The notes below the pieces were generated by a model, which was not told the origin of the DNA, ran no database searches, and saw nothing but the letters and a program-made list of their open reading frames with translations. From a bacterium (GTDB lineage Bacteria; Patescibacteriota; Andersenbacteria; UBA10190), in NCBI GenBank assembly GCA_030698495.1, contig JAUYKA010000008.1, positions 14,895 to 78,894 on the forward strand: a DNA stretch of 64,000 nucleotides, written 5' to 3'. The number at the start of each line of letters is the position of its first letter. Positions within the stretch are counted from its first letter, which is position 1. Made by a program: the position numbers and the translations under genes. Below are positions 311 through 24,636 of the stretch, piece after piece.

Positions 311-2273
311 TTGTCTGGTCAACTGGAAAAATTATATGATGGAAAATCATTAAATTATAACCTTGCTTTTTCTTTGCGTCATACTGCTTTTGTAGATGAA
401 GGTGTGCGCCAAGGATTGCTGGCGGGGATAGCAGTTTTACTAGCAATGTTTCTGGTATCGCGAATTCAGTCTGGACGTTGGCGTTGGATAGCAGTGTTAG
501 TGGCGGCGGCGGTTCTGTTTCCGTTAGGAGTGCTGGGGTTTTGGTACTCGACTGGTAAGTTGGGAATAGCGGATTGGGATTTGAATAAAGCGGTACAGGA
601 CTCTTATCGTATTGCTATCTTAAATTATCGTCAGCTGCCGTTGTGGAATCCTCTTGCTTGCGGCGGCGGCGCGGGATTGGCGAATCCGGAAAATTCCATT
701 TTTTCTCTGCCTTTTTTATTTGTGCTGTTAGCAGGAACACTGACGGGTTTTAAAATGGGGATTTTGTTTTCAATAATAGTTCTGGCAATGGGAATGATAA
801 TCCTGGGAAAGGCGGCGCGCTTGACGCCCCTCGGTGCTTTTTTAGCGTCTTTAACGGTGGTAGCGGGTAGCGCTTTTGTTTTGCGTTTGGTGGAGGGGCA
901 TGTTTATATCGCTTTTGCTTATGCTTGGATTCCCTGGGTGTTGTGGGGCTGGTATAAGGCCTACGCCAATTTTCAATTTTCATAGAAATACCAAGGCACA
1001 AAAAATAGACAGGGGCGGCGTTGGTTTGAAAATTGGTCATTGGAAATTCAATGAAAATTGGTCATTGAAAATTGGAAATTTTAACTATTATTCTCTTCTC
1101 ACCGGTATCTTTCTGGCTCTGATGTTTTACTAGGGGGGTATTTATCCTCTAATGTACACGGGTTTTATTTTGCTCTTTTTGGTATTGGTGGCAAGACGAA
1201 AGGTAAGAGCATTATTAGTAACAGTGGTAAGCAGTGTTTGGGCGTTGGGCCTGTCGGCGTTCAAATTGGTGCCGGCTTTGTTTTGGATGAGCGGAGTTCA
1301 TCAAGGGGCCTACACGCAGTCCAGTTATACTTGGCGTTATTTAGGAAAAATATTTTTAGGACGCAACTGGCATGGTGCCAATGTTTTTTATAACCAGGGT
1401 ATAGGCTGGCATGAGTATGGGGCTTATGTTGGTCCGGTGATAGTTGTATTGGCGATAGTGGCGCTATTGGGTTGGCGGCGGGATCGGATAACGCGGCTGC
1501 TGGTGATTGGTGTGGTAATTACAATTACAGTGTCCACGCTTGGTCCGTTGGCGGGAGCGGCGCTGGCAAAGTTAGAGTTTTTACCCCGTTCGAATGTTTC
1601 CCGGTTGGTTCTTGTGGGTGTAATACCGCTGGCGTTATTGGCGGGCAAAGGGCTGGATGTGTTGGGTAGTCGCCGGTGGTTGTGGTGGATACCGGCAGCG
1701 ATGATCGGGTTGGCGGCGATAGATTTATTTACTTTGTCTTACCCTGTGTCTACGCAGGCGTTTACTATGGATGCCGTGCGAGAGAAGATGCCGGTACTTG
1801 TTAACCCGATTGCGTATAGCCGAGCGAGATATCCCGAAGGTCGGGGCGGTAGGGAATACACGCGTTTTTCCGCGTTAGTGGAGCAGGGTTACGGCTGGCT
1901 TGATTATTGCCCCCCGCTGAACCCTTCTCCGGCGGTAGTGAGCGCGGAAGCTAACGCTAAGGCACAATTCGCGGAAATAAAAGGAGGTGGGGAAGCCAGG
2001 GTTAGCGGTTGGTCGCCAAATGGTTTTGATGTTGATTACCGGGCGGAGGAGGAATCGATAGTTGTTTTTAACGAGAACTTTGGGTTTGGTTGGACGGTTA
2101 ATGGCGCGCCCGCGTTGAACGACAAGGGGCGGCTGGCAGCGAAGGTGCCGGCGGGAGAGGGACAAATAAAGATGAGATATAGAGCGCGGGGAATAGGGGT
2201 CGGCATAGCTATAGTCATCGCAACGGTTGGACTGGTTATAGGGTTAATGACAAGCAAACGTAGGTTTAGGTAA
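311..2273 (+). pseudogene. YfhO-family (GT-C-like) membrane glycosyltransferase, apparently disrupted. The N-terminal TM part is in frame +2 (311..985) and the C-terminal part in frame +3 (876..1133 and 1152..2273).
   Basis: The N-terminal piece has multi-TM helices and the motif LPLWNPLACGGG, shared with the two downstream paralogs (FPLWNPYFCGGSP and LPVWSNLFGFGQP). The C-terminal piece has TMs, a beta-rich domain and a terminal TM like the paralogs. Pieces are separated by an AT-rich repeat tract and TAG stops at 983..985 and 1131..1133. Confidence 0.5.
966..1090. repeat. AT-rich short direct and inverted repeats that interrupt the YfhO-like gene. The recurring unit is gaaaattggtcattg(g)aaatt.
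   Basis: gaaaattggtcattggaaatt lies at about 1027..1047 and gaaaattggtcattgaaaattggaaatt at about 1059..1086. The inverted partner ccaattttcaattttc lies at 966..981. Confidence 0.5.
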
Positions 2274-4712
2274 CTATTCAACTTTTGAAAGTACGATCAG
2301 GATTGTGATGGCAGATACTAAACTGATGAGACTGCCCCAAATAAAAGAGTTTGGCAGAAACTTTATAGTGATTGTTTGTCCGATATCCGCGGCGGATATA
2401 TAAAATGCGGGGCGGAAGTTTTGGGCGAAAACTGAACGATTCGACGCGCGCCAACCGGCGGCGTATTTTTGGTTGACAATGATCGTATCTTGGCCGTTGT
2501 CCGGTGTAATTGAGTTTACTTTGAAGGTAATTTTGTTGGGGGTGTATTGTATTAATGTAATACCGCTGCCGTTTTGCGCGAATAATTCGCCGCGGTATCG
2601 CTCGTTTTGGTGTCCGGTTATGGAGGCGTTAGATTGCCAGAGTTGAAGATGCGCCGGGCACTGATTGGCGGCACCGTCGCCTGCGTTGACGGTATGATAG
2701 CTGATGTCATTTCTGTTTTCTTCTTGGGTGAAGGTATTGCCATAGGGGCTGGCGGTTATAGGGGGCAGACTAAATATCTGCTGCCATGGATATGCCGCTG
2801 TCAGACTAAGATCTATGAATATTATACCTGCAACAATTGTAGTAACGGCGGGTCTAAAAGCAATTGGTAAGAAACGATTGATAATGGTTTGGGTGCCCAT
2901 GGCCGCCAGAAGAGAAAGGGCGAGGACAACCATAATCATTGCTCTGCCGGAGTTGCGGAGTTGGTTGAGTACGGGGAAAAAATCAATAAAGCTATGACTG
3001 GCAGGGGCGGTTACAATAAGCAAAAAGGAGAGACCGGATATGATAAAAAGGAAAAAGAGAAGACGGCGGCGTACTTGAAGGATGGCGGTTAAACCGGCAA
3101 GCGCTAATATTAGCGGAAACCAACCGATATAGGAGGAGTATTCGTGCCAAGGTTGTTCCAGCCAAGGCAGGAAATAATATAAATCAATATGTCGGTCGAG
3201 GAGGACGGTGGGTACATGAAGCCAGGGAGTGCCGTTGTTTTTTGCGAGTGCTCCGCTGACATAGCGGAGAAAATCCAGGATAGGCAAAATTTTTATAGCA
3301 CCCAGGGAGAGGGTTAGAATAAAAAATATACAAGTGTTGCGAATGATGGTTGATCTTAGGGGTGAGAGAAAGATAGCAACAAGAGCAGAAAATAAGATTA
3401 TAAAAAGAGATATATAGGTTACTAGATGCACGCGGCCTTCCAGTAAAATAAGAAGTAAAAATATTACCGACATAATAATATATCGGCGTTTCCTGAAAGA
3501 GCGGAGAAAGTAATAAAAAACCCAGGGGACCCAGGCCACTGATAGCCAGAGGAGTTGTCCGGCGGCAAGATGACTAGAGACGAAGCCATTGCCCATAAAT
3601 ATAATTGCTGGAATCAGGGCGGATGCTTTACTTAGCTTTAATTGGAGAGAGAGTAAATATGATCCTATAAGCCCAAGTGCTAGGTATGTGGTAATGGCTA
3701 TTTTAGAACCGATTATATCTCCGAAAACAATAGTGAGAAGGAAGGTTAGGGATGGCCAATAAGTTTGTGGATTGCCCCAACTGGGCGAGCCGCCGCAAAA
3801 GTAGGGATTCCAGAGGGGGAATTGTCCGGCCGCTAAGCTGTGCCGGGCGGCGCTGTAATGACTGGCCGCTTCGGTCCAGTCCCATGTCCCCCAATTGGTT
3901 GCGTTTTGATATACCGGTAAGGAGAAAAACAAAGCCAGGATAATAAATAATAAAATAGGCGGAGATGACAGGAGGCGGTGACTTTTAATTTGTCTGGCTA
4001 TTAAAAGTGATTCGATAGCAACCAGAGCTAGAAAAACAATGAGTACGATGTCGTATAGGCGTGATTGTTCGAATATCAAAGATTGAAGCCGTTGCAGAAA
4101 AGAGGCGCGGTAATAAGTGCGGAAGCTTAAGCTATTGGGTTTTACGCGGCCATTAACGGATATACTGCCGTCGGTGTATTTTGTGGCATCAATTTCCGAT
4201 GGAAGTAGTAATCCTTCGGCATCCGTTCGTAAGGAAAATTGGGAGGTAGTACCGGTTTTTAGAGAAACCGGTTCAAATCGGAATAACAACCAGCGGCCGG
4301 GTGTCAACGACTGTTCATTAAGAGCCGGTTGATTCGATTGCGAAGTAATAAGAAAATTTTGTATGTTATCGGTGCGGCTGACGACTATGGTTCCTGACGA
4401 AGACTTGACGGTAAAAGTTCCGTTAATATTTTTATCACCGGCAGTGTCCGGCTTGATTTGGACGGCGATGCCCGAGATAGGCTGACGTGTGACCAGGAAA
4501 CTTTGTGTGATTGTGTCGTGGGCGTCGAAGGTATGTTCGGAGCCAGGGAGAACGGCGAGTGATTGATCGGTAAGATTGGACGGCGCTGCAAGGAAAGCCA
4601 AAACAAAGCGCGCGGAGATAAAGACGATAACCAGGCAAATAATAACAGCAAATGACGCGGTTATTATCGATGTGGGTTTTAGCGCGGAACTATGAAAGAC
4701 TGGATCGCGCAT
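2274..4712 (-). CDS. YfhO-family polytopic membrane protein, a putative GT-C glycosyltransferase for extracytoplasmic glycosylation.
   Basis: 812 aa with more than 10 TM helices and the motif AAGQFPLWNPYFCGGSPSWGNP. It has a large C-terminal extracytoplasmic domain with AAGWRASN and a final TM anchor. Confidence 0.7.
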   Translation of the reverse strand: MRDPVFHSSALKPTSIITASFAVIICLVIVFISARFVLAFLAAPSNLTDQSLAVLPGSEHTFDAHDTITQSFLVTRQPISGIAVQIKPDTAGDKNINGTFTVKSSSGTIVVSRTDNIQNFLITSQSNQPALNEQSLTPGRWLLFRFEPVSLKTGTTSQFSLRTDAEGLLLPSEIDATKYTDGSISVNGRVKPNSLSFRTYYRASFLQRLQSLIFEQSRLYDIVLIVFLALVAIESLLIARQIKSHRLLSSPPILLFIILALFFSLPVYQNATNWGTWDWTEAASHYSAARHSLAAGQFPLWNPYFCGGSPSWGNPQTYWPSLTFLLTIVFGDIIGSKIAITTYLALGLIGSYLLSLQLKLSKASALIPAIIFMGNGFVSSHLAAGQLLWLSVAWVPWVFYYFLRSFRKRRYIIMSVIFLLLILLEGRVHLVTYISLFIILFSALVAIFLSPLRSTIIRNTCIFFILTLSLGAIKILPILDFLRYVSGALAKNNGTPWLHVPTVLLDRHIDLYYFLPWLEQPWHEYSSYIGWFPLILALAGLTAILQVRRRLLFFLFIISGLSFLLIVTAPASHSFIDFFPVLNQLRNSGRAMIMVVLALSLLAAMGTQTIINRFLPIAFRPAVTTIVAGIIFIDLSLTAAYPWQQIFSLPPITASPYGNTFTQEENRNDISYHTVNAGDGAANQCPAHLQLWQSNASITGHQNERYRGELFAQNGSGITLIQYTPNKITFKVNSITPDNGQDTIIVNQKYAAGWRASNRSVFAQNFRPAFYISAADIGQTITIKFLPNSFIWGSLISLVSAITILIVLSKVE

Positions 4713-7539
4713 GGGCTGATACGGGGTAGATTATAAGGCAAAAAACCAATATTAAAGCAACGAGTGTGATAATTTTGGCTTGGGCGATTGCGGGCGAGTG
4801 GTAGCGGAAAGTTACCGTGTGGTTGCCGGCGGGAACGTAGGCGGTTTTAAACACGGTATCGGCGACGTAGTACGGCGCCGGTTGGCCGTCTATGGTAGTT
4901 TGCCACATAGGCAGGGTGCTGTCGGTGACCACCAGCCAGGCGGCATTTTGCGTATCCACGTTAACGGTAGCTTCGCCGTCGCCGTAATCAGTAATAGTAG
5001 CAGTGCCGATAACGGGCGGATTATTGAGCGTGTCGTCGGCGGGAGGCTTCGGGCCGGAGACATATATCAATTCCGCGGGATTGAAATTGTTTTGCGTCAT
5101 GGCGGCGCGCGCTTCGTCATCGGCCGGCTGAAAAATCGCGTTTGGTACCAGAAAGGCTTTGGGAAAGGCTTGGGGGTTGATGTAGAGATTGGCGGAACCG
5201 ATGTTAGTGTCGACACTGTCTGTTAACTGAAAGTTATTGGCCGGCATATTGTCTTGGCCCTGCGGCGGAACTATTTGGGCCAAATGAGTGACGCCGGCCA
5301 GGTCTAGGGTTTTGCGATGGCGCTGGATGGCGTGTAAGCCCTCGCCATCGAAGGGTTGATCGTTGTCGTTGGCAAAGAATGTTTCGATGAATTCCCGATA
5401 AGGCCGGATGGATAGAGCGCCAATCCAGCGGGCGCTGCTGGTATTGGCAGTGGCTTGTAAGTGTCGGGCAAAGATAAGATTTTCGGGGTCGGTTTGCGCG
5501 GAAGAAGTTTCGGCGACTTCCAGACGGTTATACTTCTGCGACTGTTCGATTTGTTCGGTGGTGGGGTTGGCGACGCGGACAAAATAGGCTGATTTGGCGG
5601 TGGAAGTGGAATAAGTGTAAAGGCTGATGCCGTTATCTGTTTGGGATTTAAAGGAAAGATAATAAGTGGCATCGGGAGAGGGGAGGCTTACGTTAAAACA
5701 AAATGTTTGATCGTGAACTTGTGAGATATTGTAGGCGGTAATTGTTTGCGTGGCTACAGGTGGTCCGGTAACTGTTTGGCTTAACGCAATTTCTATGTTG
5801 CCGTCAGCGTTAGGCGGTGCGTACATGGGGGCTGAAAAACAAGGATTATTTGTATTATGGACAATAATAGGCTGGTAAGCGGAAAAATCCGGAGATAAAA
5901 GCGAAGTTGGTTTGATAGTGTACTTGTTGGCGTCTGTTAAGATGGTGTCGCGACTGTAAAGGCGTGGCGGGACGGCGTTATCCAGAGTGTATTGTTCAAG
6001 AGGTGAGGCCAGCGGCGACCGGACGGCTAAAGAAGGCAGCGTCGTTGGATTATAGGCGAAGCCATAAGCGACTAGAGAAAAAGACGCCGTTATAACCAGG
6101 GCCGGCGGCCAGAGGTTAGCGGCGCGGGGGAAACGATGGATAAAAATTCCAAGCAAGAAAACGATCAGGCCGATCAGGGCAATTACGAGCTGCCAGTTGT
6201 AGGTTTTAAGAAGACTGATAAGGCGTGCGGTGATAGTTGGGTCGTGCAGGGATAACAGAAAAGGCAGGAAAATTAAAAGGACTATGAAGGCAGAGAGCAA
6301 AACAGCAAGAGGAGTACGTTTGGGTTTTTTTGTCAGTGATTCAAATCCCAGGGCAGCTAAAATGGCGACGGCAAAATCAACGAAGTAGACGAAGCGGCCA
6401 GCGACGCTAAGGGTGGTTAGGTAACGGTGTTCGACAAGATATCGATAAACGGGCGAATATTGACCCAGGGCAAGTGCGATACCCGATAAAAACAGGATAA
6501 GGGCGGCAATACGCAGCTGTTTATGGTCGCGCCAGTAGAATAAGGAAACGGCTGTCAGCAGTAACGGGATAATACCGGTGAACGCGGCCAGTTCCTGAAA
6601 GCCTTTGGCGCCCCAGTAACGGGCGTGGTCGCCGAAGAAGTAAGGCGCGACTAATGTGATGGCGTGAGCCGGAGGATAACTAAAATCAAAGAGTTCTGTT
6701 TCAGGCAGGTCGGCGTTGCGTTCGGTGAAGGGGATAAATTCTTTTAAAGGGAGGATGGAGAAGGAAGAGAGAGATAAGGCGAGAAGGGCGGAGATAAGAG
6801 TATATACTATGACTAGTGATGTGTATTTTATGATTGAATTGTTAAATTGCTGAATTGTTAAATTGCTTTTTAGGTTAGCGAAGAACAAGGCTAGGCCGAC
6901 AGTGGCAGCGATGATGAAGCTATATAAAACTACTTGTGGTTGGGCGGACATCGTCATGGCAGTGGCGATCAGAGCCATGGCGGCGGCGGCGCGGCGGCGG
7001 GGGCGGTCAAGAAAAGATTTGATGGCGACCAGTAGCCAAGGCAGTAGCATGACGCCGGTATAGAAGTTAACGTGGTTGAGATGGCCGATATTAAAACCGG
7101 AAAAGGTGAAGACAATAGCGCCGAGGGCGGATGAAAGTTGGGATAGGTTAAACTTTCTCAAGAAAACATAAAAACCGGTAAGGCCAATGAGAAAATATGT
7201 TACGACTGATATTTGCAGCAAGATGAGCGGTGGGATATAAAGGGCGCGCATGAACAAATGGAGGGGCGTGAAGAAGCCGAGTTGCCCCCAGGCCATTAGC
7301 GGCTGACCGAAGCCGAACAGGTTGCTCCAGACCGGTAGCTGCCAAGAATGCTGAAACCGCGCGTAAACGGTTTCCAGGGGGTAGTAAATTATTTTTAGAT
7401 CGTCGAGGAAGTAGAACCTTTGTCCGGAGATTATTGGAAAGAAAAAAAACAGCCAGGCTCCGGTAATAATTAACAACCCGGTTCTGTTTTTTGAGACTAA
7501 CGAGAGCAGTTTTTGAAATAAAATAGCGGGGCTTGCCAT
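4690..7539 (-). CDS. YfhO-family polytopic membrane protein, a paralog of the 2274..4712 gene.
   Basis: 949 aa with a multi-TM N-terminus and the motif SWQLPVWSNLFGFGQP. It has a long soluble domain and a C-terminal TM. Its stop overlaps the start of the downstream paralog by 23 nt. Confidence 0.7.
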   Translation of the reverse strand: MASPAILFQKLLSLVSKNRTGLLIITGAWLFFFFPIISGQRFYFLDDLKIIYYPLETVYARFQHSWQLPVWSNLFGFGQPLMAWGQLGFFTPLHLFMRALYIPPLILLQISVVTYFLIGLTGFYVFLRKFNLSQLSSALGAIVFTFSGFNIGHLNHVNFYTGVMLLPWLLVAIKSFLDRPRRRAAAAMALIATAMTMSAQPQVVLYSFIIAATVGLALFFANLKSNLTIQQFNNSIIKYTSLVIVYTLISALLALSLSSFSILPLKEFIPFTERNADLPETELFDFSYPPAHAITLVAPYFFGDHARYWGAKGFQELAAFTGIIPLLLTAVSLFYWRDHKQLRIAALILFLSGIALALGQYSPVYRYLVEHRYLTTLSVAGRFVYFVDFAVAILAALGFESLTKKPKRTPLAVLLSAFIVLLIFLPFLLSLHDPTITARLISLLKTYNWQLVIALIGLIVFLLGIFIHRFPRAANLWPPALVITASFSLVAYGFAYNPTTLPSLAVRSPLASPLEQYTLDNAVPPRLYSRDTILTDANKYTIKPTSLLSPDFSAYQPIIVHNTNNPCFSAPMYAPPNADGNIEIALSQTVTGPPVATQTITAYNISQVHDQTFCFNVSLPSPDATYYLSFKSQTDNGISLYTYSTSTAKSAYFVRVANPTTEQIEQSQKYNRLEVAETSSAQTDPENLIFARHLQATANTSSARWIGALSIRPYREFIETFFANDNDQPFDGEGLHAIQRHRKTLDLAGVTHLAQIVPPQGQDNMPANNFQLTDSVDTNIGSANLYINPQAFPKAFLVPNAIFQPADDEARAAMTQNNFNPAELIYVSGPKPPADDTLNNPPVIGTATITDYGDGEATVNVDTQNAAWLVVTDSTLPMWQTTIDGQPAPYYVADTVFKTAYVPAGNHTVTFRYHSPAIAQAKIITLVALILVFCLIIYPVSAHARSSLS

Positions 7540-8632
<1,093 letters not shown>

Positions 8633-8653
8633 ACCGCCAAGTACTTTATTAGT

Positions 8654-9475
8654 ATGCCGATTATAAAAGACTACATAATTAAAACTACTCTAAAAGGGAT
8701 AGAAAACACGGTCGGGTTGTTTGGTAAAGAGTTGTCAATCGGCGGTGAAAGGGGAGAGGTAACTTTATTTATGGGATTGCCAAAAGACATGGATCCTGCT
8801 TTTCAGCGCATATATAAAGAATGCCGTCCTTACACAATGACTTCTGTAGAGCGAATGTATGCCCTATACCAGGCCACAAAATATATTATTGTTCAGCATC
8901 TTCCTGGTGATTTTGTCGAGTGCGGGGTGTGGAGGGGAGGAAGTGTGATGCTGGTGGCTAAAACTCTTAAAGAACTTGGCGTAACTGATAGGCGTATACA
9001 CCTATTTGACACATTTAAGGGGATGACTACTCCAACTGACCGTGATGCAAGGATATCTGACAATCTGCCGGCAACTTCCCTATGGAAGACGCAAGCTCGC
9101 GGTGACTATAACGAATATGCTTATGCTCCCCTTGAAGATGTGCAGCGAAACTTGTCGACTACGGGATATCCCGAGGAAAATTTTGTTATTGTTGCCGGTC
9201 CAGTGGAAGAGACTTTACCACGATTAGCCCCACCAAAAATTGCTCTTTTGCGTTTAGATACGGACTGGTATGAGTCTACTAAACATGAATTGGAACATCT
9301 TTTCCCGCTGCTTGTACAAAATGGCATTCTAATCATTGATGATTACGGGCATTTCACCGGTGCACGGGATGCAGTTGACGAATATTTTAAGGAGAAAGGC
9401 ATTAATCTTCTATTAAACAGAGTGGACTACACTGGGCGATTGGCTATTAATACCGCGCCGCAAAATAACGGCTAA
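8654..9475 (+). CDS. TylF/MycF-family SAM-dependent sugar O-methyltransferase.
   Basis: The motifs FVECGVWRGGSVM and LRLDTDWYESTK are typical of macrocin O-methyltransferase-like class I methyltransferases. Confidence 0.8.
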   Translation: MPIIKDYIIKTTLKGIENTVGLFGKELSIGGERGEVTLFMGLPKDMDPAFQRIYKECRPYTMTSVERMYALYQATKYIIVQHLPGDFVECGVWRGGSVMLVAKTLKELGVTDRRIHLFDTFKGMTTPTDRDARISDNLPATSLWKTQARGDYNEYAYAPLEDVQRNLSTTGYPEENFVIVAGPVEETLPRLAPPKIALLRLDTDWYESTKHELEHLFPLLVQNGILIIDDYGHFTGARDAVDEYFKEKGINLLLNRVDYTGRLAINTAPQNNG

Positions 9476-11151
9476 TTTGCTCTGTTTTTCGCCGCGTAAA
9501 TTTCTTGCTCGTCGAGCAAGTTGATTGGAATAACAAATTTTCCTTTAAGCAGGTTGTTTGGTGTGGAAGGTTTAGCGTTTAGATGCTTGCTCGCGCGGTA
9601 GAGAAGGTAACTTAGGCTAAAATAGCGGGTGTGCGAGGTGGCTTTAATGATGGAGAGATTGTGTTTTTTCAAGAGGACAGCCAGGGACTTTCGGGAAAAA
9701 TAGTGAAGATGAGAAGGAAAAATGCAGTACCATGAACGTCCCATCATTTTAGCCAACAAACTATCAAAGCGAGGAGTAGTTAGCACAAATAAGCCATCAG
9801 GTTTTAGTAAGCGCGCTGCTTGAGAAATTAATTTTTGGGGTTCGGGATGGTGTTCAATAACGTCTAGCATAGCTATAACATCAAAACTGGCGCTATCTAA
9901 TTTAGCGAGAGCGTTGTTATCAGTTTGAATATTTGTTAAGCCAAATTCAGCTTCGGCATAAGAGGCTGAGGCAATTGAAGGCTCGATACCGGTAACCCGC
10001 CATCCCTGCTTTTTTGCTTCATTTAAGAAGAAGCCTGGCCCAGCCCCTATATCAAGAAGGTGCCCCGGTTTTTTATTGGCTGAAATCCTGCTTAGGATTT
10101 TACGCGCTGTTTTTTGTCTGGTAACTTTTTCTGATAGATAGACTGTGTCTAAGGGTGCGTATTTATAGAGATGAGAGAGCTGTTCAAAGCTGTTGTTGAG
10201 GGGCGTGAATCCATGAGAGCATGAGGGGCAGCGGTAAATTGGCAATTGCTTATTTGTGTCTTCAATAGAGATGCGGTATTGGTGCTGTTTGAAGAAAACG
10301 CTTGGTTTAATATTTCCTTTTTGAAACAGTTTTGTTTTGTGGCTGCAAATGGGACATTTTTGAGGCGACAGGCTGCCGCTGGGCTTAAGGGTTTTAAGAG
10401 TTGACAGGCCATATTTAACTGATGATGCAAAAGGGATAGACGACGATTCGTTTGTATAGCGGCAGGGGATGGCCGCTTCGGCAAAACGGAATTTTTGGCG
10501 GGCGGCGGAGGCAATCATTTCCGAGTCAAAGACGAAGCTGTCAGAGAACTCTTCGAAAGGCAGCGACTCTAAGAGTTGTTTTGAGTAGGCCCGGTAACCG
10601 GAGTGACATTCTGACAGCGATATTCCCAAAATTTTATTTTGTAGAAAGGTGAGCAGCCTGTTGCCCCAATATCGCCACCAAACCATGCCGAATTCTCGCG
10701 GGTCTTGTTTTAAAAATCTTGAACCAATAACAAAATCGGCTTCCTGATGTAAAATTGGCTTGATCATTTGCGGCACATAGCGCGGATCATACTGAAAATC
10801 AGGGTGTATCATTACCACAATATCCGCTCCATGCTGCAAGGCTTCCTTGTAACAGGTTTTCTGGTTTCCGCCATAGCCCTTGTTCTGCCGATGTTTCACG
10901 ACCTTTAACCCGTCTATTGTTTCAGCAACCTTGACCGTATTATCACTACTGGCATCGTCTACCAAAATCACTTCATGAACATGGGTTTTTGGTATGGCTT
11001 TGTATGTTTTGGCCAGTGTTTGCTCGGCGTTGAAGGCCGGTAATACTGCGATGATGTATGGCTTTGGTTGTGCAGGCTGATCGTTGTCGAAACTCCTGAT
11101 AGCAGTTGACTGTTTCTCTGTTTTGGTTGGCTGTCTTGTTAATACGTCCAT
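9472..11151 (-). CDS. Fusion protein: an N-terminal GT2 (GT-A) glycosyltransferase, a CxxC...CxxC zinc ribbon, and a C-terminal class I SAM methyltransferase.
   Basis: The N-terminus has AVLPAFNAEQTL...VILVDDASSDNT...VIGSRF, which is DPM/GtrB-like. The middle has CPICSH...CPSCSH. The C-terminus has LLDIGAGPGFF...FDVIAMLDVIEHHPEP...LKPDGLFVLTTP. Confidence 0.75.
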   Translation of the reverse strand: MDVLTRQPTKTEKQSTAIRSFDNDQPAQPKPYIIAVLPAFNAEQTLAKTYKAIPKTHVHEVILVDDASSDNTVKVAETIDGLKVVKHRQNKGYGGNQKTCYKEALQHGADIVVMIHPDFQYDPRYVPQMIKPILHQEADFVIGSRFLKQDPREFGMVWWRYWGNRLLTFLQNKILGISLSECHSGYRAYSKQLLESLPFEEFSDSFVFDSEMIASAARQKFRFAEAAIPCRYTNESSSIPFASSVKYGLSTLKTLKPSGSLSPQKCPICSHKTKLFQKGNIKPSVFFKQHQYRISIEDTNKQLPIYRCPSCSHGFTPLNNSFEQLSHLYKYAPLDTVYLSEKVTRQKTARKILSRISANKKPGHLLDIGAGPGFFLNEAKKQGWRVTGIEPSIASASYAEAEFGLTNIQTDNNALAKLDSASFDVIAMLDVIEHHPEPQKLISQAARLLKPDGLFVLTTPRFDSLLAKMMGRSWYCIFPSHLHYFSRKSLAVLLKKHNLSIIKATSHTRYFSLSYLLYRASKHLNAKPSTPNNLLKGKFVIPINLLDEQEIYAAKNRAN

Positions 11152-11209
11152 GGATATTAGCAGTTTATGGCTTTGTGCGCTGCGGCGCGCTCTGATATGA
11201 TATTACACT

Positions 11210-13066
11210 ATGTCTAATCTTGGGCAACAAAAAAATAATATACGTATAGTGAGTATTGGTTTGCTAATAATAGGTGTGCTTGCTAGTGTTTTCCAGCTGT
11301 TATATGGCGTGGTTAGTGCTTCTATAGACCGCGATACCTATTTTTTGCTGGCGGCGGGCAGGGAAGTGGCATTAAGTGGAATTCCGCGCCTTCCTTTTTT
11401 TGTGAATAGTACGCCCGGAATCGATATTCTCTTTTGGACACACCAAGTGCCCGCCTTCTTATATGGGGCAATAGTGAAATTTTTGGATGTAAATATTTTT
11501 AGTTTTACCTGGGTTGTCATTGCCCAATTGATACTGACTATGGTTATTAGCTTCTTGTTTTTACGGGAGTTGTTGAAATGGTGTGAGCCGGGACTGGTGC
11601 GCTATGCACCGGTGTTCCTGTTGTTCCTGCTATATGATCCGATATTTAACATTCTTTTCCTGAATATAAAAATGTTTTTGCAATGGGCATATATTTGGTC
11701 TGTCTTAGCCATAATATTTTTAATATGGTTTTGGCATAACCCCCGCGGATGGCGTGGTTTAGTTTGGCTGTTTTTAAGCAGTTGTTCAGTGGCATTAGCT
11801 CCATTATCTTTTATAAGCTTGGGCATTCCGGCGGCACTTGGCATTGCCATCACAGAACTCTTGTTTGTGAGGTGGAGAACAAAAGGAATTTCACGAGAAT
11901 ATGCCATAAAAGCCTTTCTGGCCTGTATTTTAGGCTGGTTTATACCAGTGCTTTTTTTGTTAGTGTATTTGGGTGGTAAGCTGGATCCTGGCCAATGGAA
12001 AACTTTATGGGTTCTGGTTGGCTCTTATGGAGAAAACGCTTCCGTTCTAAGCATAAAACAATATATTCTCCAGCTTGGTTTTTTTGGGAGCACCATGTTT
12101 ATACCGCTACAGGGGTTCAGCTTGCTGCCAATCGGATTAATCTCAATATTTTCTAATTTTGTGCGGCGGCACAGTCTGGCTATCCAGCAGCAGTATTTGG
12201 TGTGGATGTCTTTTGTGTTGGTTGCAGCTTGGTTATTAGCGGCTTCTGTGGGGAGCACGCATTTTGCCAGCCACTTAATGATATGGATTTTGCCCATAAT
12301 GTTAGTGAATATTGCTATTATTTTAGGTTCAAAGAAGAACAGCGACACAAGAGCGATATTTTTGACGGCAGCATCGATTATTATTCTGGGGCAGGCTAGT
12401 TATCACTTAGTGCTTAATTCCTTAAACTATCTGGCAATTGCCGCGGCAGCAGGTGTGACATCGGGGATGATAATAGTTTTGTATTATCAAAAATGGAAAT
12501 TGCCGGTCTTTATAAGTTTGTTTATTTCTTTGTTGTTTTTTGTGCCGGTTGTACAAACAAGGTTAGTTTCCCTACATTCTTTTGCCCCAACGGTTTTACG
12601 GGAGGTCGGACGTGATAAATTATGGTCGTACGATAATTTTTTATTGGCTACTCGTGAAGTAACTAGCCGTTATGTTCAACCAAATGATTGGGTGTTAACT
12701 AATTTACCAGTGACTGAGCTTTTTCCCGAGGGCGTGAAGTTACAAATTCTTTATAACTATCGTGGTTTATTTAGCGGTGCTCGCCTTGAGCCGGGTGATG
12801 TGGCTATTCTTTTTGGTTCTACTGAAGCGAAGAGCATTGCTAATTATCAAAATATGAGTGTAGGTGAAGTATTTTCTTACCGTTTGTTTGAATATGAAAT
12901 ATTGAAGCGAGAAGAACTTTCTGCTGGGCATTATTTGTTAGTTGCTAAGCCAGCGGCCAGTTTAGATGCTAATAAGCAAGTTATTGAAGATGATCGAGCT
13001 GCTTCCAAAAGTGAGGTACGAAATTATTTGCAATGGCGGTTGGAGAACAATTTGCCAATTAAATAG
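11210..13066 (+). CDS. Large polytopic membrane protein of unknown function, a GT-C-like candidate with a C-terminal soluble domain.
   Basis: 618 aa with about 12 predicted TM helices, then a roughly 180-aa hydrophilic C-terminus. The first extracytoplasmic loop contains DRD. I recognise no family motif. Confidence 0.5.
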   Translation: MSNLGQQKNNIRIVSIGLLIIGVLASVFQLLYGVVSASIDRDTYFLLAAGREVALSGIPRLPFFVNSTPGIDILFWTHQVPAFLYGAIVKFLDVNIFSFTWVVIAQLILTMVISFLFLRELLKWCEPGLVRYAPVFLLFLLYDPIFNILFLNIKMFLQWAYIWSVLAIIFLIWFWHNPRGWRGLVWLFLSSCSVALAPLSFISLGIPAALGIAITELLFVRWRTKGISREYAIKAFLACILGWFIPVLFLLVYLGGKLDPGQWKTLWVLVGSYGENASVLSIKQYILQLGFFGSTMFIPLQGFSLLPIGLISIFSNFVRRHSLAIQQQYLVWMSFVLVAAWLLAASVGSTHFASHLMIWILPIMLVNIAIILGSKKNSDTRAIFLTAASIIILGQASYHLVLNSLNYLAIAAAAGVTSGMIIVLYYQKWKLPVFISLFISLLFFVPVVQTRLVSLHSFAPTVLREVGRDKLWSYDNFLLATREVTSRYVQPNDWVLTNLPVTELFPEGVKLQILYNYRGLFSGARLEPGDVAILFGSTEAKSIANYQNMSVGEVFSYRLFEYEILKREELSAGHYLLVAKPAASLDANKQVIEDDRAASKSEVRNYLQWRLENNLPIK

Positions 13067-13102
13067 CTTTTGTTACTTTACATATTTTGATAGACTATTT
13101 TA

Positions 13103-14032
13103 ATGCATAACAGCGAAGCAAAACCGAATGATTGGCTGAGCCGGATAGCTTTTGATGAAACTGTTGCCAACTATACCTCTCAAAGGGGCGAAGACAGGAT
13201 ACTGCAAAAGTTGTTTGAAACAATAGGTATAAAAAATAAGTGGTGTGCGGAGTTTGGGGCGGCTGACGGCAAGCATCGAAGCAATACCTGGTATTGGATA
13301 AATAAGCAGGGGTGGTTTGGTGTGCAGATAGAAGCGGCACGGGATGTTAATTTGGGCTTGAGGATACCTTGGCACGATAGTTTTGAGGCTTTACGGCGCC
13401 GTTACAAGAATAATAAGAAGATTGTGTGCTTCAATAAGTGGGTGGGGACCAAAGGTGAGAACGCATTAGATCAGATTTTTCGAGAGACTGGCATTCCGAA
13501 AGATTTTGATTTGCTTTCAATGGATGTGGATGGCGCCGAGTATGATATTTGGCAAGCGATGGTCGAATATAAGCCGCGAGTGATGGTTATTGAATATGAT
13601 AAAACGATACCGGTAGAAATTGATTTCCATTCGGATCGCGGATCGAGTTTACGGGCGTTGGCGCGATTGGGTAGAGAAAAAGGATATGAGTTGGCGGCGG
13701 CTAATGATTTGAACGGGGTTTTTGTAAGAAAGGAATTTTTTGGGATGCTGGGCATTAGCGACAATGATCCGGCCCGGTTGTGGTCAGGGTATGAACAGTA
13801 CAGGGTTTACGCGCAGAAGAATAATAAGGGGAGCTTAGAATTTTTTGGCCCAAACAATTTAAGGTGGGTTAGCGGCAAGGACGGAACTTTGAGAGGACAG
13901 TTTGAGTCGGGACAATATATCTGGATTAAACCCGGAGAAACTTCTATTAAAAGCAAAAAAGAAAATAGTAAGATGACTTGGTATTTAACGGGGTGGCTGC
14001 GTCACTGGTTTTATTATTTGACGGGAACTTAA
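13103..14032 (+). CDS. FkbM-family SAM-dependent methyltransferase.
   Basis: The N-terminal pattern SQRGEDRIL...WCAEFGAADGKHRSNT...GWFGVQIEA matches the FkbM signature (SQxGED..., fvDvGAnDG..SNT...GW.Gl.iEp). Confidence 0.6.
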   Translation: MHNSEAKPNDWLSRIAFDETVANYTSQRGEDRILQKLFETIGIKNKWCAEFGAADGKHRSNTWYWINKQGWFGVQIEAARDVNLGLRIPWHDSFEALRRRYKNNKKIVCFNKWVGTKGENALDQIFRETGIPKDFDLLSMDVDGAEYDIWQAMVEYKPRVMVIEYDKTIPVEIDFHSDRGSSLRALARLGREKGYELAAANDLNGVFVRKEFFGMLGISDNDPARLWSGYEQYRVYAQKNNKGSLEFFGPNNLRWVSGKDGTLRGQFESGQYIWIKPGETSIKSKKENSKMTWYLTGWLRHWFYYLTGT

Positions 14033-19828: not shown

Positions 19829-21097
19829 ATGGATGCTAAAAAAATATACGAACAGCTTTTTTATCTGGATCGCTCACTTATGGGGTCGGCTAATGACAAA
19901 GCTCTTGAATTGATAGGGGCCGAAATACCTTTGAGGATTTATAGTTTTCGCAGCGGCGATAAAGTTTTTGATTGGCAGATTCCTAAAGAGTGGATATTTC
20001 ATTCGGGACACATGGTCGATCAAGATACGGGTAAAACGTTGCTGAATGCTGCCGATAATATACTGCGCGTTGTTAATTACAGCGAGAAATTCCACGGCAC
20101 CGTAGAGTACAAGCAGTTGGTAAAGCATCTTCATTATAGTCATGTCATGCCCAATGCGATCCCTTATCTTACTAGTTATTATGCTAAAAACTGGGGGTTG
20201 TGTATGCCCCAAAAACAATTTCATCAGTTAAACAAGAAACATACGTATAAGGTTGAAATTGATGTCGAACGGAAGAGCGGAGTAATGAATATTGGGGAAG
20301 CGGTAATAAAAGGGAAGTCAGACAAAGAGGTTGTATATTCTTCCTATTTATGTCATCCCAGACAAGCCCATGATGGGTTGTCGGGAGTTGTTATGATGTT
20401 GTTGTTATTCCATCTCTTACGAGATAGCAATAATTATTATACTTATCGTTTTTTATTTATTCCTGAAACGATTGGCAGCATCGCTTTGTTGTCGCGCAAT
20501 ATTATACGTCCTTCTCGGGTGGAATATGCCCTTGTCGTTACGTGTGTCGGCAGGGGAGAGCATATTAATTATAAAAAGACGTTTTTGGCAAACCACACTA
20601 TTGATCGTGTTGTGGAACGAGTGCTTAAGAAAAAGGGAAGAAAATATACAGTGCGAACATTTTGGCCCCAAGGCAGTGACGAGCGACAGTTTTCGAGTCC
20701 AAGCATAAGAATTCCCACCGGGTCTATTATGGGAAATGTTTATCAGGAATACCCCGAATATCATACTTCGGCGGACAATTTGAATTATGTATCTTTGCCT
20801 GCGGTGAAAAAATTTGCTCAATTATACTATCAAGTTGCTAAAGAGTATGAGCAGTACCCTAAATTGATCAATAATCTACCGGGGGGTGAGCCTTTTTTGA
20901 CTAAGTATGGTTTGTATCGTGTATTAGGAGTACCCGGGCATACGTCACAAGAGACAATTCGCAGTTGGATATTGTTTCTGGCCGATGGCAGCCATACAAT
21001 TGTTGATATGGCGGCAGAAACCGGTTTTACTGAACGTGAGCTAAAGCCGTTTGTGGCACAATTACTTAAGATGAAGTTAATAAAAGAAACTGAATAA
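19829..21097 (+). CDS. Hypothetical protein, possibly an M28-peptidase-like (DUF4910-type) domain protein with a C-terminal winged helix.
   Basis: 422 aa. The assignment is from memory of the family (IYSFRSGDKVFDWQIPKEW, FIPETIGSIALL) and is tentative. Confidence 0.35.
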   Translation: MDAKKIYEQLFYLDRSLMGSANDKALELIGAEIPLRIYSFRSGDKVFDWQIPKEWIFHSGHMVDQDTGKTLLNAADNILRVVNYSEKFHGTVEYKQLVKHLHYSHVMPNAIPYLTSYYAKNWGLCMPQKQFHQLNKKHTYKVEIDVERKSGVMNIGEAVIKGKSDKEVVYSSYLCHPRQAHDGLSGVVMMLLLFHLLRDSNNYYTYRFLFIPETIGSIALLSRNIIRPSRVEYALVVTCVGRGEHINYKKTFLANHTIDRVVERVLKKKGRKYTVRTFWPQGSDERQFSSPSIRIPTGSIMGNVYQEYPEYHTSADNLNYVSLPAVKKFAQLYYQVAKEYEQYPKLINNLPGGEPFLTKYGLYRVLGVPGHTSQETIRSWILFLADGSHTIVDMAAETGFTERELKPFVAQLLKMKLIKETE

Positions 21098-21098
21098 A

Positions 21099-22904
21099 AT
21101 GGATATGTTTGTGCAGAAACCATACGTTCTGGCGGAAATTGCCGGGGCTCACGATGGCAGTGAAGAGCGATTATTTCAATTGATTGATGCTATTGGTGAA
21201 ACAGGAGCCCATGGAGTTAAATTCCAATTATTTCAAGCCGAAGGGCTGGCCACACAAGATCATCCACAGTATGCAATATGGCAGCGCCTTTCCTTTACAA
21301 CAGATATATGGCTTAGGGCTATGGACAAGGCGCGAGGCCTCGGGTTGAATGTGTGGATCGATGTCTTTGATGACTGGGCGCAGGATTTTTGTCTAAAGCA
21401 CGAGAAAAAAATATATGGGTATAAGTTTCATGCAACAAAGGTATTTGACCCGAGAGTTCCCCGTGTTTTTTACGGGAGTAAGAAGCATATCCTTATTGGC
21501 ATAAGCGGTTATGAAGACAGCGAGGTGCATAAACTTGTAAATTTATACTCCAGGTTACGACACGCCTCAATAATTCTCGAACATGGTTTTCAGCAATACC
21601 CCACGCCTTTAAAGGAAGCCAGTCTGGCGCGCATTCGACACTTAAAAGATAGTTTTATGTTACCGGTTGCGTTTGCCGACCATACTAAAGGGGGCTCAAG
21701 GGAAGCCATGATGATTCCGGAATATGCTTATATGGTCGGTGCCTCTTTGATTGAAAAACATGTTTGTCTTTCCCGAGCCACTACGAAGTATGATTATCAT
21801 TCTTCGCTGGAACCGGGGGAATTAAAGAGAATGGTTGAGCGGCTACGTGTTTGTAATGATGTATTGGGTGAGGATACGCCCACTATTGCACAAATTGAAA
21901 ACACGAAACAAGTTGTAGTAAAACCGGTGTTAAAAAGAAGTATAAAAAAAGGGGTTGTGGTGGGCGAGAAAGATGTGACTTATCTTCGTTCCCCTAATCG
22001 TAACGCTTTAACTGCTGAACGGTTTCAATCTCTTTTTCCGGCAGTTACCGACATGGATCTGGTTGCGGGGCGTGTTATTGAGGGAAGAGATGTACATCGT
22101 CCTCGTGTTATTGCGGTTGTGCCTTGTCGAATGAAATCCACTCGTTTACCCAAGAAGGCTCTATTAGAAATAGGCGGAATGCCTTCTGTTAAACGAGCAT
22201 TGATAAACATAAAGACTTTTCCGGTGAGCCAGGTTGTGTTGGCAACTTCTATTAATGGCGAAAATGATGAGCTGGTGGAGTATGCCAAGGAATTAGATGT
22301 CTCGGTAGTGAGAGGACCAGAGGATGATGTGTTAGAGAGAATTATTTTAGCAGTCAATAAGTATCAGGCAGAGTATGTAATTCGTTGTCCGGCTGATTCC
22401 ATTTTTGCAAGCGGTGACATTATGCGTTTTCTGATCGAGCGGCATATTACATCCGGATATGATTTGACGACTCCCGCTCAACCATATTCTATTGGCACGG
22501 CGGGGGAAGTGTATACCGTCGAAGCGCTTTATAAATTACGCAAATTACTTTTTAAAACCGAGTATAGTGAATACTTGCCGATGTATTTTACTAATAATCC
22601 GTCTATTTTTACCGCACAGCGGGTTCTTCTTCCTGAACAATTTCGTAATGATCAATGGAGATTAACTCTAGATGAAGAAAGAGACTTGGAATTATTTCGT
22701 AAAATTTATGATTACCTTAAACCCGGCCACAATCCTGTTTTCTATGAGCAGGTTGCCGAGTTTTTTGCCGCCTATCCGGGTGCGGAGAAGATTAACGCGG
22801 GAGTTTCTACTAAATGGTGTGATGACTATGAATTAGTAAGAAAAATTACAGAGAAAACTACTATTTCAAAAAAAGTTATATTAACGAATCGGGCAGTTGT
22901 TTGA
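21099..22904 (+). CDS. Bifunctional fusion: an N-terminal NeuB/SpsE-like nonulosonic-acid synthase domain (TIM barrel plus SAF-like) and a C-terminal SpsF/NeuA-like cytidylyltransferase domain.
   Basis: The N-terminus has VLAEIAGAHDGS...HGVKFQLF...AFADHT...IEKHVCLS, which is NeuB-like with a variant NHNG. The C-terminus has IAVVPCRMKSTRLPKKALLEI...VLATS...VVRG, the cytidylyltransferase signature. Confidence 0.7.
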   Translation: MDMFVQKPYVLAEIAGAHDGSEERLFQLIDAIGETGAHGVKFQLFQAEGLATQDHPQYAIWQRLSFTTDIWLRAMDKARGLGLNVWIDVFDDWAQDFCLKHEKKIYGYKFHATKVFDPRVPRVFYGSKKHILIGISGYEDSEVHKLVNLYSRLRHASIILEHGFQQYPTPLKEASLARIRHLKDSFMLPVAFADHTKGGSREAMMIPEYAYMVGASLIEKHVCLSRATTKYDYHSSLEPGELKRMVERLRVCNDVLGEDTPTIAQIENTKQVVVKPVLKRSIKKGVVVGEKDVTYLRSPNRNALTAERFQSLFPAVTDMDLVAGRVIEGRDVHRPRVIAVVPCRMKSTRLPKKALLEIGGMPSVKRALINIKTFPVSQVVLATSINGENDELVEYAKELDVSVVRGPEDDVLERIILAVNKYQAEYVIRCPADSIFASGDIMRFLIERHITSGYDLTTPAQPYSIGTAGEVYTVEALYKLRKLLFKTEYSEYLPMYFTNNPSIFTAQRVLLPEQFRNDQWRLTLDEERDLELFRKIYDYLKPGHNPVFYEQVAEFFAAYPGAEKINAGVSTKWCDDYELVRKITEKTTISKKVILTNRAVV

Positions 22905-23562: not shown

Positions 23563-24636
23563 TTGCATGTTATGACACACACTTATGTGATAGGTGAAAT
23601 AGGGCAGAACCATAATGGTTCTGTGGGTCTGGCAAAACGCATCATTGATATAGCGTCTATGCCGGTTATTGACAATAATGGCCGTGAGTACAAGGCAATG
23701 GATGCGATCAAGCTGCAAAAAAGGGACCTACGTGAAGAGATGACTGCTTCAGAGAGGCTAAAAGCGTATGATAGTACAAATTCTTTTGGTAGAACATACG
23801 GAGAGCACAGAGCGTATTTAGAATTAAGCAACGAGCAGCATGCGGAGCTTTATTACTACGCTAAAAATAGAGGGCTGGAGGTGGTGGAAACCATTTGCAG
23901 TGTGGGAGCGCTGGAGCTGCTTGATTTTTTTAAACCAGATAAATTAAAAGTTGCTTCAAGGGATCTGACTAATTTGCCATTGGTTGAGGCGATGGCAAGA
24001 ACTAAAATACCCCTTATTCTTTCGACGGGGATGTCGGGAATTGAAGATTTGGCAGAAGCTTTAAAAATTGTCAGTGCGTATCAATCCAGAATTACTATTT
24101 TGCATTGTCTTTCCCAGTATCCGGCGGATTATAAAAATATAAATTTGCATACCATTACATATCTTCGCCGGGAATATCCTCAACATATTATCGGTTACTC
24201 TGACCATAGTGAAGGCATTATGATTCCAGTTGCGGCGGTGTCTTTGGGCGCTCAAGTTATTGAAAAGCATTTAACATTGAATCGTGCAATGAAAGGATCT
24301 GATCATCGGGGGGCCTTGGCCCCTGATGGTGTTTTTCGGATGATGCGCGATATACGACATTTGGAGTTGGCTCTAGGAGAGCCAATAATGGAAGCTCATC
24401 CTGCAACTACCATCGCAAGGGATAAACTGGAAAGGTCAGTTGCTGCCAGAAGAGACCTGATGATTGGAGAGATTATAACAGAGGAAGATATCCATTTGCT
24501 TAGTCCGGGGATGGGGTTGAAATGGAGAGATAGAGGAAAGATTCTAGGACGCAAAGTCAAGCAGGTTGTCAAAAAAGATGAGCTGATACTATTGGAAGAT
24601 TGCACGCAGGAGACCGTGCTGCAAAAAGTAGCCTAA
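23563..24636 (+). CDS. NeuB-family nonulosonic acid synthase (N-acetylneuraminate / legionaminate / Kdn-type).
   Basis: VIGEIGQNHNGS, PLILSTGMSG, ILHCLSQYP, IGYSDHSEG and VIEKHLTLNRAMKGSDH align with NeuB catalytic motifs. A C-terminal SAF domain follows. Confidence 0.85.
   Translation: MHVMTHTYVIGEIGQNHNGSVGLAKRIIDIASMPVIDNNGREYKAMDAIKLQKRDLREEMTASERLKAYDSTNSFGRTYGEHRAYLELSNEQHAELYYYAKNRGLEVVETICSVGALELLDFFKPDKLKVASRDLTNLPLVEAMARTKIPLILSTGMSGIEDLAEALKIVSAYQSRITILHCLSQYPADYKNINLHTITYLRREYPQHIIGYSDHSEGIMIPVAAVSLGAQVIEKHLTLNRAMKGSDHRGALAPDGVFRMMRDIRHLELALGEPIMEAHPATTIARDKLERSVAARRDLMIGEIITEEDIHLLSPGMGLKWRDRGKILGRKVKQVVKKDELILLEDCTQETVLQKVA

Follow-up and report, generated by a model that had tools for sequence, protein, structure and literature searches.

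The 64,000-nucleotide stretch of Andersenbacteria (Patescibacteriota) contig JAUYKA010000008.1 analyzed here, hereafter the window, carries on its minus strand an open reading frame (ORF) with an ATG start that codes for a 559-aa protein, in which a glycosyltransferase family 2 (GT2) module is fused to a class I S-adenosylmethionine (SAM)-dependent methyltransferase (MT). The initial annotation had described a tripartite GT2, zinc-ribbon, and methyltransferase protein at 9472 to 11151, and the ORF, the Pfam domains, and both CxxC pairs confirm this layout. The parts of the fused gene are as follows:

9472..11151, minus strand: the fused gene, coding for a GT2 module, a short linker, a four-cysteine zinc ribbon, and a class I SAM methyltransferase
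10384..11079, minus strand: GT2 module, residues 25-256, like DPM1/ArnC-type polyprenyl-phosphate glycosyltransferases
10357..10383, minus strand: nine-residue linker PSGSLSPQK, residues 257-265, spanning from the end of stand-alone GT2 relatives to the start of stand-alone MT relatives
10219..10356, minus strand: zinc-ribbon segment (C266, C269 ... C308, C311), the four cysteines of which align with the cysteine pairs of the TcaB9 N-terminal zinc domain
9481..10218, minus strand: SAM-dependent methyltransferase domain and C-terminal strands, residues 312-557

Pfam assigns Glycos_transf_2 to residues 36 to 196 (E = 5.7e-24) and Methyltransf_23 to residues 345 to 503 (E = 8.4e-31), with Methyltransf_11, Methyltransf_12, Methyltransf_25, and Methyltransf_31 also matching, and weak zinc-ribbon matches lie between the two domains (RUBY_RBDX, 0.0023; Zn_ribbon_8, 0.043). 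The CxxC pairs are C266-P-I-C269 (window 10345-10356) and C308-P-S-C311 (10219-10230), and none of the four cysteines varies when 62 full-length homologues are aligned. An AlphaFold2 model of the fused protein built from this alignment has a mean predicted local distance difference test (pLDDT) score of 90.2 and a predicted template modeling (pTM) score of 0.72; residues 1 to 24, which are not conserved, are modeled with low confidence and form the sole disordered stretch. A hydropathy scan (threshold of 1.6) reveals no transmembrane segment in the fused protein, and the product is probably a bifunctional cytoplasmic enzyme, attached peripherally to the membrane. A public protein with 100% identity, P0001, is annotated as 'bifunctional glycosyltransferase/class I SAM-dependent methyltransferase.'

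It is conceivable that assembly or gene calling has united two separate genes, and two observations point that way: nearly all relatives in the window's clade are split (>100 clusters), and the sole close fused relative has a frameshift elsewhere in its gene. This is, however, exceedingly improbable. The reading frame is unbroken, with neither a stop codon nor a frameshift at the junction, where the initial annotation had considered that an artefactual join might lie. A separately assembled Logan contig (SRR26726065) is 100% identical to the window over 2612 bp, including the whole gene, although this contig may share the window's reads and is thus weak evidence alone. The close relative, which comes from another sample (L008, in ERR10503176) and is 48% identical, has the same short in-frame junction (YGLTTLATVLPHKRRQLREICPVC), and this junction together with the >120 other fused homologues known rules the artefact out. 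The frameshift in the L008 copy (L008 1591-3382) is near L008:2007, upstream of the junction and between the GYGGNQKTCY and HPD motifs of the GT2 module, and reflects either a pseudogene or an assembly error. Furthermore, the split relatives lie divergent or convergent, so that neither a lost stop codon nor a frameshift could have made the fused gene. We therefore reject an artefactual fusion.

Searching with the full-length protein yields 628 matches at E ≤ 1e-5, the best 120 of which are nearly all 520 to 620 aa long with both Pfam domains and derive from Patescibacteria (Sungbacteria, Harrisonbacteria, and Minisyncoccia), Omnitrophota, and Actinomycetota. More than 60 proteins of 520 to 610 aa align to 87 to 95% of the fused query with 36 to 45% identity. 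Classification of the retrieved proteins with one hidden Markov model (HMM) per module gives 78 with the order GT-MT and 47 with MT-GT (125 fused), together with 120 that are GT only and 184 that are MT only. Alignment shows that the order GT-zinc ribbon-MT is shared by the window protein, Patescibacteria, and some Actinomycetota, and that zinc ribbon-MT-GT is found in Omnitrophota and other Actinomycetota. The fused architecture is recurrent rather than rare, and the window protein is an uncharacterized member of it. The earlier description of the arrangement as uncommon is thus wrong across the database, where fused proteins of both orders abound among those retrieved and have already been named by NCBI; its validity is confined to the clade to which the window belongs (Peribacteria-like, candidate phyla radiation), in which >100 relatives are split and two are fused. 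Two further arrangements were seen. In Sungbacteria, locus L003 has a second, shorter fused gene (L003 1718-3121; 467 aa, Methyltransf_23 then Glycos_transf_2), located 4 kb upstream of the fused homologue and beside a gene for a 122-aa EamA-type membrane protein. Proteins P0378 and P0384 (764 and 768 aa) have the zinc-ribbon MT at the C terminus, preceded by ~470 residues that do not match the GT2 model, and may be examples of a third type of fusion partner.

The GT module is most closely related to >100 clusters of stand-alone GT2 proteins, which are ~226 aa long and 60 to 71% identical to it, some labeled Andersenbacteria or Peribacteria; fused proteins have at most ~54% identity to it. The MT module, too, is closest to stand-alone proteins, of ~300 aa and 39 to 45% identity. 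The two stand-alone genes adjoin each other, either divergently and 26 to 83 bp apart (L001, L002, L009, and L010) or convergently and overlapping (L007), and the GT2 proteins adjoining split MTs are 65% identical to the window GT module and end exactly where the linker starts. In neighbor-joining trees, the window protein falls within an otherwise split-only GT2 clade (30 of 30 bootstraps) and, for the MT module, groups with six split MTs beside the main fused clade. Fusion or fission has thus occurred several times, which is classic evidence that the GT and MT activities work together.

The GT2 module has the motif H116-P-D118-x-Q120-Y, which is invariant in the 62 homologues and is followed by D-P in the window protein, and the family thus has an invariant HxD in place of the usual DxD. 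A GYGGNQKTCY motif is also present, as is an aromatic amphipathic helix (residues 158-175; WWRYWGNRLLTFLQNKIL) that precedes H183-S-G-Y-R-A-Y; these last two features align through the interface-helix and xG(F/Y)R region of ArnC, to ArnC chain position 183. A profile built from 25 GT modules matches among PDB sequences DPMS (2.7e-15), ArnC (2.7e-9), GpgS (3e-6), and GtrB (2e-4), and HPDFQ aligns to the DADLQ of DPMS and ArnC, with the second Asp and the Gln in register and His replacing the first Asp. The best NCBIfam matches of the module are AglJ (4.9e-23) and PpgS (2.2e-20), with dolichyl-phosphate hexose transferase (1.5e-09) and ArnC (1.9e-07) also matching, and all of the top matches are makers of lipid-phosphate sugars. 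In Foldseek, the GT half matches ArnC, GtrB, and DPMS with template modeling scores (TM-scores; target normalized) of 0.50 to 0.57. Judged from these comparisons, the GT module is most like the enzymes that attach a sugar to polyprenyl or dolichyl phosphate (DPMS, ArnC, AglJ, and PpgS).

Scanning genomes (one per species) with the GT-module alignment finds the HxD-type GT2 at a minimum of 600 loci in many phyla, and the two best matches (60 to 62%) are in Peribacteria. The same type of GT2 is also present on contigs assigned to archaeal metagenome-assembled genomes (L026 and L034; Nanoarchaeota and Bathyarchaeia) with 51 to 54% identity. This defines a large DPM1-like GT2 family that has HxD, is without a transmembrane helix, is present in at least 600 species genomes, and usually has a polytopic membrane partner, often with a C-type glycosyltransferase (GT-C) match.

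Within the MT module, G373, D430, E433, H434, and H481 are invariant in the 62 homologues and G369 and E390 are nearly so; W474, R509, and R519 are also conserved. G369 and G373 are part of the SAM-binding motif LLDIGAGPGFF (GxGxG at 369-373), so that the C-terminal domain does have in alignment the motif that the initial annotation considered it might lack. The best Foldseek matches of the whole model are KijD1, MtmC, and TcaB9 (E of ~1e-13, 311 to 326 aligned columns, 16 to 18% identity). A profile built from 24 MT modules matches among PDB sequences an uncharacterized Bacillus cereus methyltransferase (3cc8; 2.7e-23), then UbiG, and then TcaB9 (1.4e-14). It covers residues 13 to 267 of the 416-residue TcaB9 chain, with both cysteine pairs in register and the SAM domain at 109 to 267. 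H434 aligns to TcaB9 H181 and H481 to H225; TcaB9 Y222 aligns to F478 and E224 to S480 (A or S in relatives). The TcaB9 chain numbering is offset by 2, as checked against the Y222F mutation.

The last third of the TcaB9 chain (~268-416, Methyltransf_14), which contributes the dTDP-sugar site, has no counterpart in the MT module; the alignment ends at 267 with ~40 module residues left, and neither Methyltransf_13 nor Methyltransf_14 (PF08484) matches the fused protein in Pfam at E ≤ 0.1. The TylC3-type layout that the initial annotation proposed therefore stands for the zinc and SAM domains, which are homologous to those of TcaB9 and KijD1, and fails for the C-terminal domain and for family membership; similarly, Glycos_transf_2 and Methyltransf_23 match as it had anticipated, and Methyltransf_13 and Methyltransf_14 do not. 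With that domain absent and neither of these two families matched, we reject membership of the TylC3 family, and the sequence comparisons indicate that the MT module is a shorter relative of TylC3-type enzymes, outside that family.

Sequence matches of the MT also include UbiG and phosphatidylethanolamine N-methyltransferase, and the GT2 is without the transmembrane helices that anchor and oligomerize GtrB, ArnC, and DPMS. Both observations would agree with an MT that methylates a lipid, carrier, or protein, or that is mainly a structural or oligomerization domain for an anchorless GT2. We consider this very unlikely, however, as the UbiG-type matches are confined to the generic Rossmann core, it is specifically with sugar methyltransferases that the zinc domain and the two invariant histidines are shared, and all of the SAM-binding residues are conserved. 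Nor is the MT needed as an anchor, since stand-alone GT2 relatives work unfused and most of their loci have no MT.

Among the 80 best GT2 loci, 45 encode within 3 kb a protein that is 400 aa or longer and has seven or more hydrophobic segments, in most cases on the strand of the GT2 gene and frequently overlapping it. Six of ten sampled membrane partners match YfhO (3e-24), PMT_2/PMT (6e-15, 1.4e-8, and 2.7e-6), or, weakly, GT87. Among loci with fused genes, a PMT_2-like gene overlaps (L003), DUF2079 lies 5 bp upstream (L004), or YfhO is nearby (L005); where the genes are split, an 856-aa protein is encoded in one operon with the GT2 (L007) and the gene for an 846-aa protein overlaps that of the MT (L001). 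GT-C enzymes take polyprenyl-phosphate sugars as donors and act outside the membrane, and the adjoining GT-C genes thus support a role for the GT2 as a lipid-sugar synthase. Small EamA-type membrane proteins are encoded in some related loci, L003 carries Fcl-like and Gmd-like genes, and L001 is the sole locus with ABC genes near the pair (Wzt/Wzm-type, ~3 kb away).

The MT is an accessory to the GT2 family, being absent within 8 kb in 73 of the 80 best GT2 loci, a neighbor in six, and fused in one. Between loci with and without a linked MT, the GT2 modules are still ~50% identical. The smallest units consist of the MT, the GT2, and a membrane protein of ~400 aa (GT87/PMT_2-like) or ~850 aa (YfhO-like), and these (L002, L007, and L009) sit amid housekeeping genes such as those for PilB, PurH, SufB, LigA, and FtsH. 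No sugar dehydratase or other sugar-nucleotide-modifying gene is present in their 6- to 8-kb flanks, although such genes may lie elsewhere in the genomes. This suggests a common nucleotide sugar as the donor and argues against C-methylation adjacent to a 4-keto group.

The fused gene in the window is similarly accompanied by genes for membrane proteins and for sugar metabolism:

4690..7539, minus strand: polytopic membrane protein, 949 aa, YfhO-like, candidate GT-C; homologous to the L007 856-aa protein (E = 1e-33)
2274..4712, minus strand: polytopic membrane protein, 812 aa, distantly YfhO-like; homologous to the L001 846-aa protein (28% over 585 aa, E = 4e-45 to 5e-45)
7652..8632, plus strand: GDP-L-fucose synthase (Fcl)-like short-chain dehydrogenase/reductase (SDR); Fcl match of 3.9e-93
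8654..9475, plus strand: TylF-family O-methyltransferase, convergent with the fused gene
11210..13066, plus strand: membrane protein, 618 aa, ~14 hydrophobic segments; divergent, starting 58 bp from the fused gene

The TylF-family gene shares its last four bases (9472-9475) with the 3' end of the fused gene, and it is uncertain whether the TylF-family product acts in the same pathway. The Fcl-like SDR is a possible source of the donor sugar, and the Patescibacteria loci L003 and L065 have copies, 62 to 63% identical, close to a GT2 of this same type; a GDP-6-deoxyhexose is thus a reasonable guess for the donor here. The 618-aa protein has no BLAST similarity to the GT-C partners of relatives, and its single-sequence AlphaFold2 model (pLDDT of 44.3) is unusable. 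A promoter and terminator scan of 7400 to 13200 gave counts not above those of shuffled sequence. Upstream of the 812-aa protein gene in the numbering of the window, a 373-aa membrane protein (1152-2273, plus strand) has similarity to the 812-aa and L001 846-aa proteins in their C-terminal halves only and may be a truncated paralogue.

We propose that the locus codes for extracytoplasmic glycosylation with an added methylation before flipping, and we give this reading, with the methylation favored at the lipid-linked stage, a probability of roughly 40%. In the first step, the GT2 module would move a sugar from a nucleotide sugar to polyprenyl phosphate, like DPM1, ArnC, and GtrB, as homology and gene context suggest; the donor in the window may be a GDP-6-deoxyhexose from the neighboring Fcl-like enzyme. 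The zinc-ribbon/SAM MT module would then methylate the same sugar on the cytoplasmic side, most likely once it is on the lipid. Finally, the methylated lipid-linked sugar would be flipped, and the neighboring YfhO-like GT-C proteins would use it to decorate a surface polymer or protein. SAM is available only in the cytoplasm and GT-C enzymes act outside the membrane, and the methyl group must therefore be attached ahead of flipping, with either the nucleotide sugar or the lipid-linked sugar as the acceptor. All of these findings fit the suggestion in the initial annotation of methylation immediately before or after the transfer of the sugar.

If the MT acts on the nucleotide sugar prior to transfer, whether through O-methylation or through C-methylation of a 4-keto intermediate in the TylC3 manner, the GT2 would transfer an already methylated sugar. 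This is possible and a serious rival, since the top Foldseek matches are NDP-sugar C3-methyltransferases (KijD1, MtmC, and TcaB9), and the TcaB9 alignment spans both the zinc and SAM domains and places H434 and H481 on H181 and H225. The substrate of Fcl is a GDP-4-keto-6-deoxyhexose, and the Fcl-like neighbor in the window, together with the Fcl-like and Gmd-like genes of L003, would be consistent with it. However, the MT module is missing the TcaB9 C-terminal domain and matches neither Methyltransf_13 nor Methyltransf_14, E224 and Y222 are not conserved, and the minimal L002, L007, and L009 modules, having no dehydratase in their flanks, would have no local 4-keto sugar. Moreover, ~50% identity between the MT-linked and MT-less GT2 modules would be unexpected if their donors differed.

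Methylation at the lipid-linked stage is favored by this same similarity of the MT-linked and MT-less GT modules and by the missing nucleotide-sugar-binding domain of the TcaB9 family, and also by the longer helical segment that the main fused clade has between the GT and the zinc ribbon. There are precedents too in which a lipid-linked monosaccharide is modified before flipping, namely ArnC-ArnD (deformylation), FlmF2-NaxD (deacetylation), and DprE1/E2 (epimerization). We thus tentatively suggest that the MT methylates a polyprenyl-phosphate-linked monosaccharide at the cytoplasmic face, right after the attached GT2 makes it.

Several observations weigh against the proposed pathway. On the GT side, the NCBIfam scores for AglJ, PpgS, and ArnC (81.9, 73.0, and 30.4 bits) compare with cut-offs of 325, 370, and 529, and in Foldseek the GT half is as near to soluble GpgS as to ArnC, GtrB, and DPMS (all E of ~1e-11), unlike the sequence profile, which favors DPMS and ArnC. 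The hydropathy scan likewise finds no transmembrane helix in the GT module, although human DPM1 and mycobacterial PpgS are also without them and the feature is not universal. On the MT side, the closest solved structures all act on nucleotide sugars and none on lipid-linked ones, and methylation of a polyprenyl-phosphate monosaccharide is not known to us, nor did we find it described in the literature. As for the partners, several of the GT-C assignments are sub-threshold Pfam matches, no family was found for the 618-aa protein by Pfam, NCBIfam, or PDB sequence search, and no flippase gene was identified beside the fused gene in the window.

Should the proposed reading prove correct, the gene pair, which occurs in Patescibacteria (candidate phyla radiation), Omnitrophota, Actinomycetota, and other phyla, would mark a widespread, unstudied route to methylated sugars on the cell exterior, and, if methylation takes place at the lipid-linked stage, the repeated fusion in two orders would be a sign that a membrane-bound intermediate is handed over directly. 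With the fused enzymes, a compact system on a single polypeptide is at hand for asking whether lipid-linked monosaccharides can be methylated, and the generic 'bifunctional' label can be replaced by a testable pathway role.

Beyond the immediate neighbors, nearly all of window positions 1 to 62000 is one glycan-biosynthesis island, with at least 10 GT4 genes, ~10 methyltransferases (TylF, FkbM, and Methyltransf_23/11), several SDR epimerases/dehydratases, an ABC exporter (36621-38480), and a GT9 heptosyltransferase-like gene (51536-52753). The island also has a second fused gene (21099-22904, plus strand; 601 aa), in which a NeuB-family domain (28-258) is joined to a CTP_transf_3 cytidylyltransferase (338-551), and a separate NeuB+SAF gene at 23563 to 24636. 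Mid-island, a 422-aa protein (19829-21097, plus strand) has DUF4910, DUF2172, a weak M28 peptidase match, and a C-terminal winged-helix HTH_47. No tRNA genes were found in the 64-kb window. The GC skew of the plus strand is +0.226 over positions 1 to 64000 (G, 17194; C, 10849) and positive in all 2-kb bins; it is similar in plus-strand (0.25) and minus-strand (0.21) genes and so is independent of transcription direction, an unusually strong asymmetry.

Given its size, its many GT4 genes, and its ABC exporter, the glycan island could also be the setting for WsaE/WbdD-like capping, in which the GT2 would add a terminal sugar to a cytoplasmic glycan linked to undecaprenyl diphosphate (Und-PP), and methylation by the MT would end its growth and mark it for ABC export. 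WsaE, a characterized protein with MT and GT domains, makes a 2-O-methyl cap (PMC2943079), and the Wzt/Wzm-type genes of L001 lie close to the pair. The exporter in the window is, however, 25 kb distant, the recurrent neighbor elsewhere is a polytopic membrane protein with a GT-C match in several loci and not an ABC transporter, the minimal modules (L002, L007, and L009) are without other glycan-assembly genes, and the GT module is nearest to the polyprenyl/dolichyl-phosphate sugar synthases. Capping is thus unlikely, and both this and action of the MT on something other than a sugar are less likely than methylation at the nucleotide-sugar stage.

The two halves of the fused protein each resemble characterized enzymes, with clear differences. 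TcaB9, KijD1, and MtmC (3ndi, 5t64, and 4rv9), which are TylC3-type NDP-hexose C3-methyltransferases, have the same four-cysteine zinc domain followed by a class I SAM domain; by comparison, the MT module is only 16 to 18% identical, lacks ~150 C-terminal residues (Methyltransf_14), and is fused or adjacent to a GT2, usually with no 4,6-dehydratase nearby. The GT module shares with DPMS (5mlz), ArnC (9hwj and 9bhc), GtrB (5ekp), AglJ, and PpgS the GT-A fold, the xxD-x-Q register, and a helix followed by SG(Y/F)R, and differs in having no transmembrane helices, an HxD motif, a distinctive GYGGNQKTCY, and scores far under the equivalog cut-offs. The logic of ArnD, NaxD, and DprE1/E2 matches our proposal, with the sugar modified after loading onto polyprenyl phosphate and before use by a GT-C; these enzymes are nonetheless unrelated to the MT module, none is fused to a GT2, and their chemistries are not methylation.

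Other systems combine or pair glycosyltransferases and methyltransferases. WsaE of Geobacillus stearothermophilus has an N-terminal methyltransferase and two glycosyltransferase domains (PMC2943079). Whereas the window protein has a single DPM1-type GT2, WsaE has two rhamnosyltransferase domains, terminates an Und-PP-linked chain, and operates alongside Wzm/Wzt export; it is unrelated to enzymes of the DPM1 type and has not been described as having a zinc ribbon. In Haloferax volcanii, AglJ loads the first sugar on dolichol phosphate, and AglP is a SAM methyltransferase of the same pathway (PMC3871713). AglJ is the best NCBIfam match of our GT module, and AglJ and AglP are separate archaeal proteins. 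AglP methyl-esterifies a hexuronic acid that is part of a tetrasaccharide. We found no paper in the literature that characterizes a DPM1-type GT2 fused to or paired with a zinc-ribbon MT.

The closest parallel to the proposed pathway is three-component extracytoplasmic glycosylation, as in CsbB/GtrB with GtcA/GtrA and YfhO/GtrC (PMC7389260, PMC11127046). There, likewise, a GT2 lipid-sugar synthase stands beside a YfhO- or PMT-type GT-C, and we found no description in the literature of a methylation step in these systems. The added part of the arrangement described here is the SAM methyltransferase, tightly linked or fused to the GT2, and the arrangement is most likely a methylating variant of the known glycosylation systems that combine a lipid-sugar synthase and a GT-C. 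If the proposed pathway is correct, it would be a four-part version of the bacterial three-component systems, consisting of the GT2, the MT, a flippase, and the GT-C.

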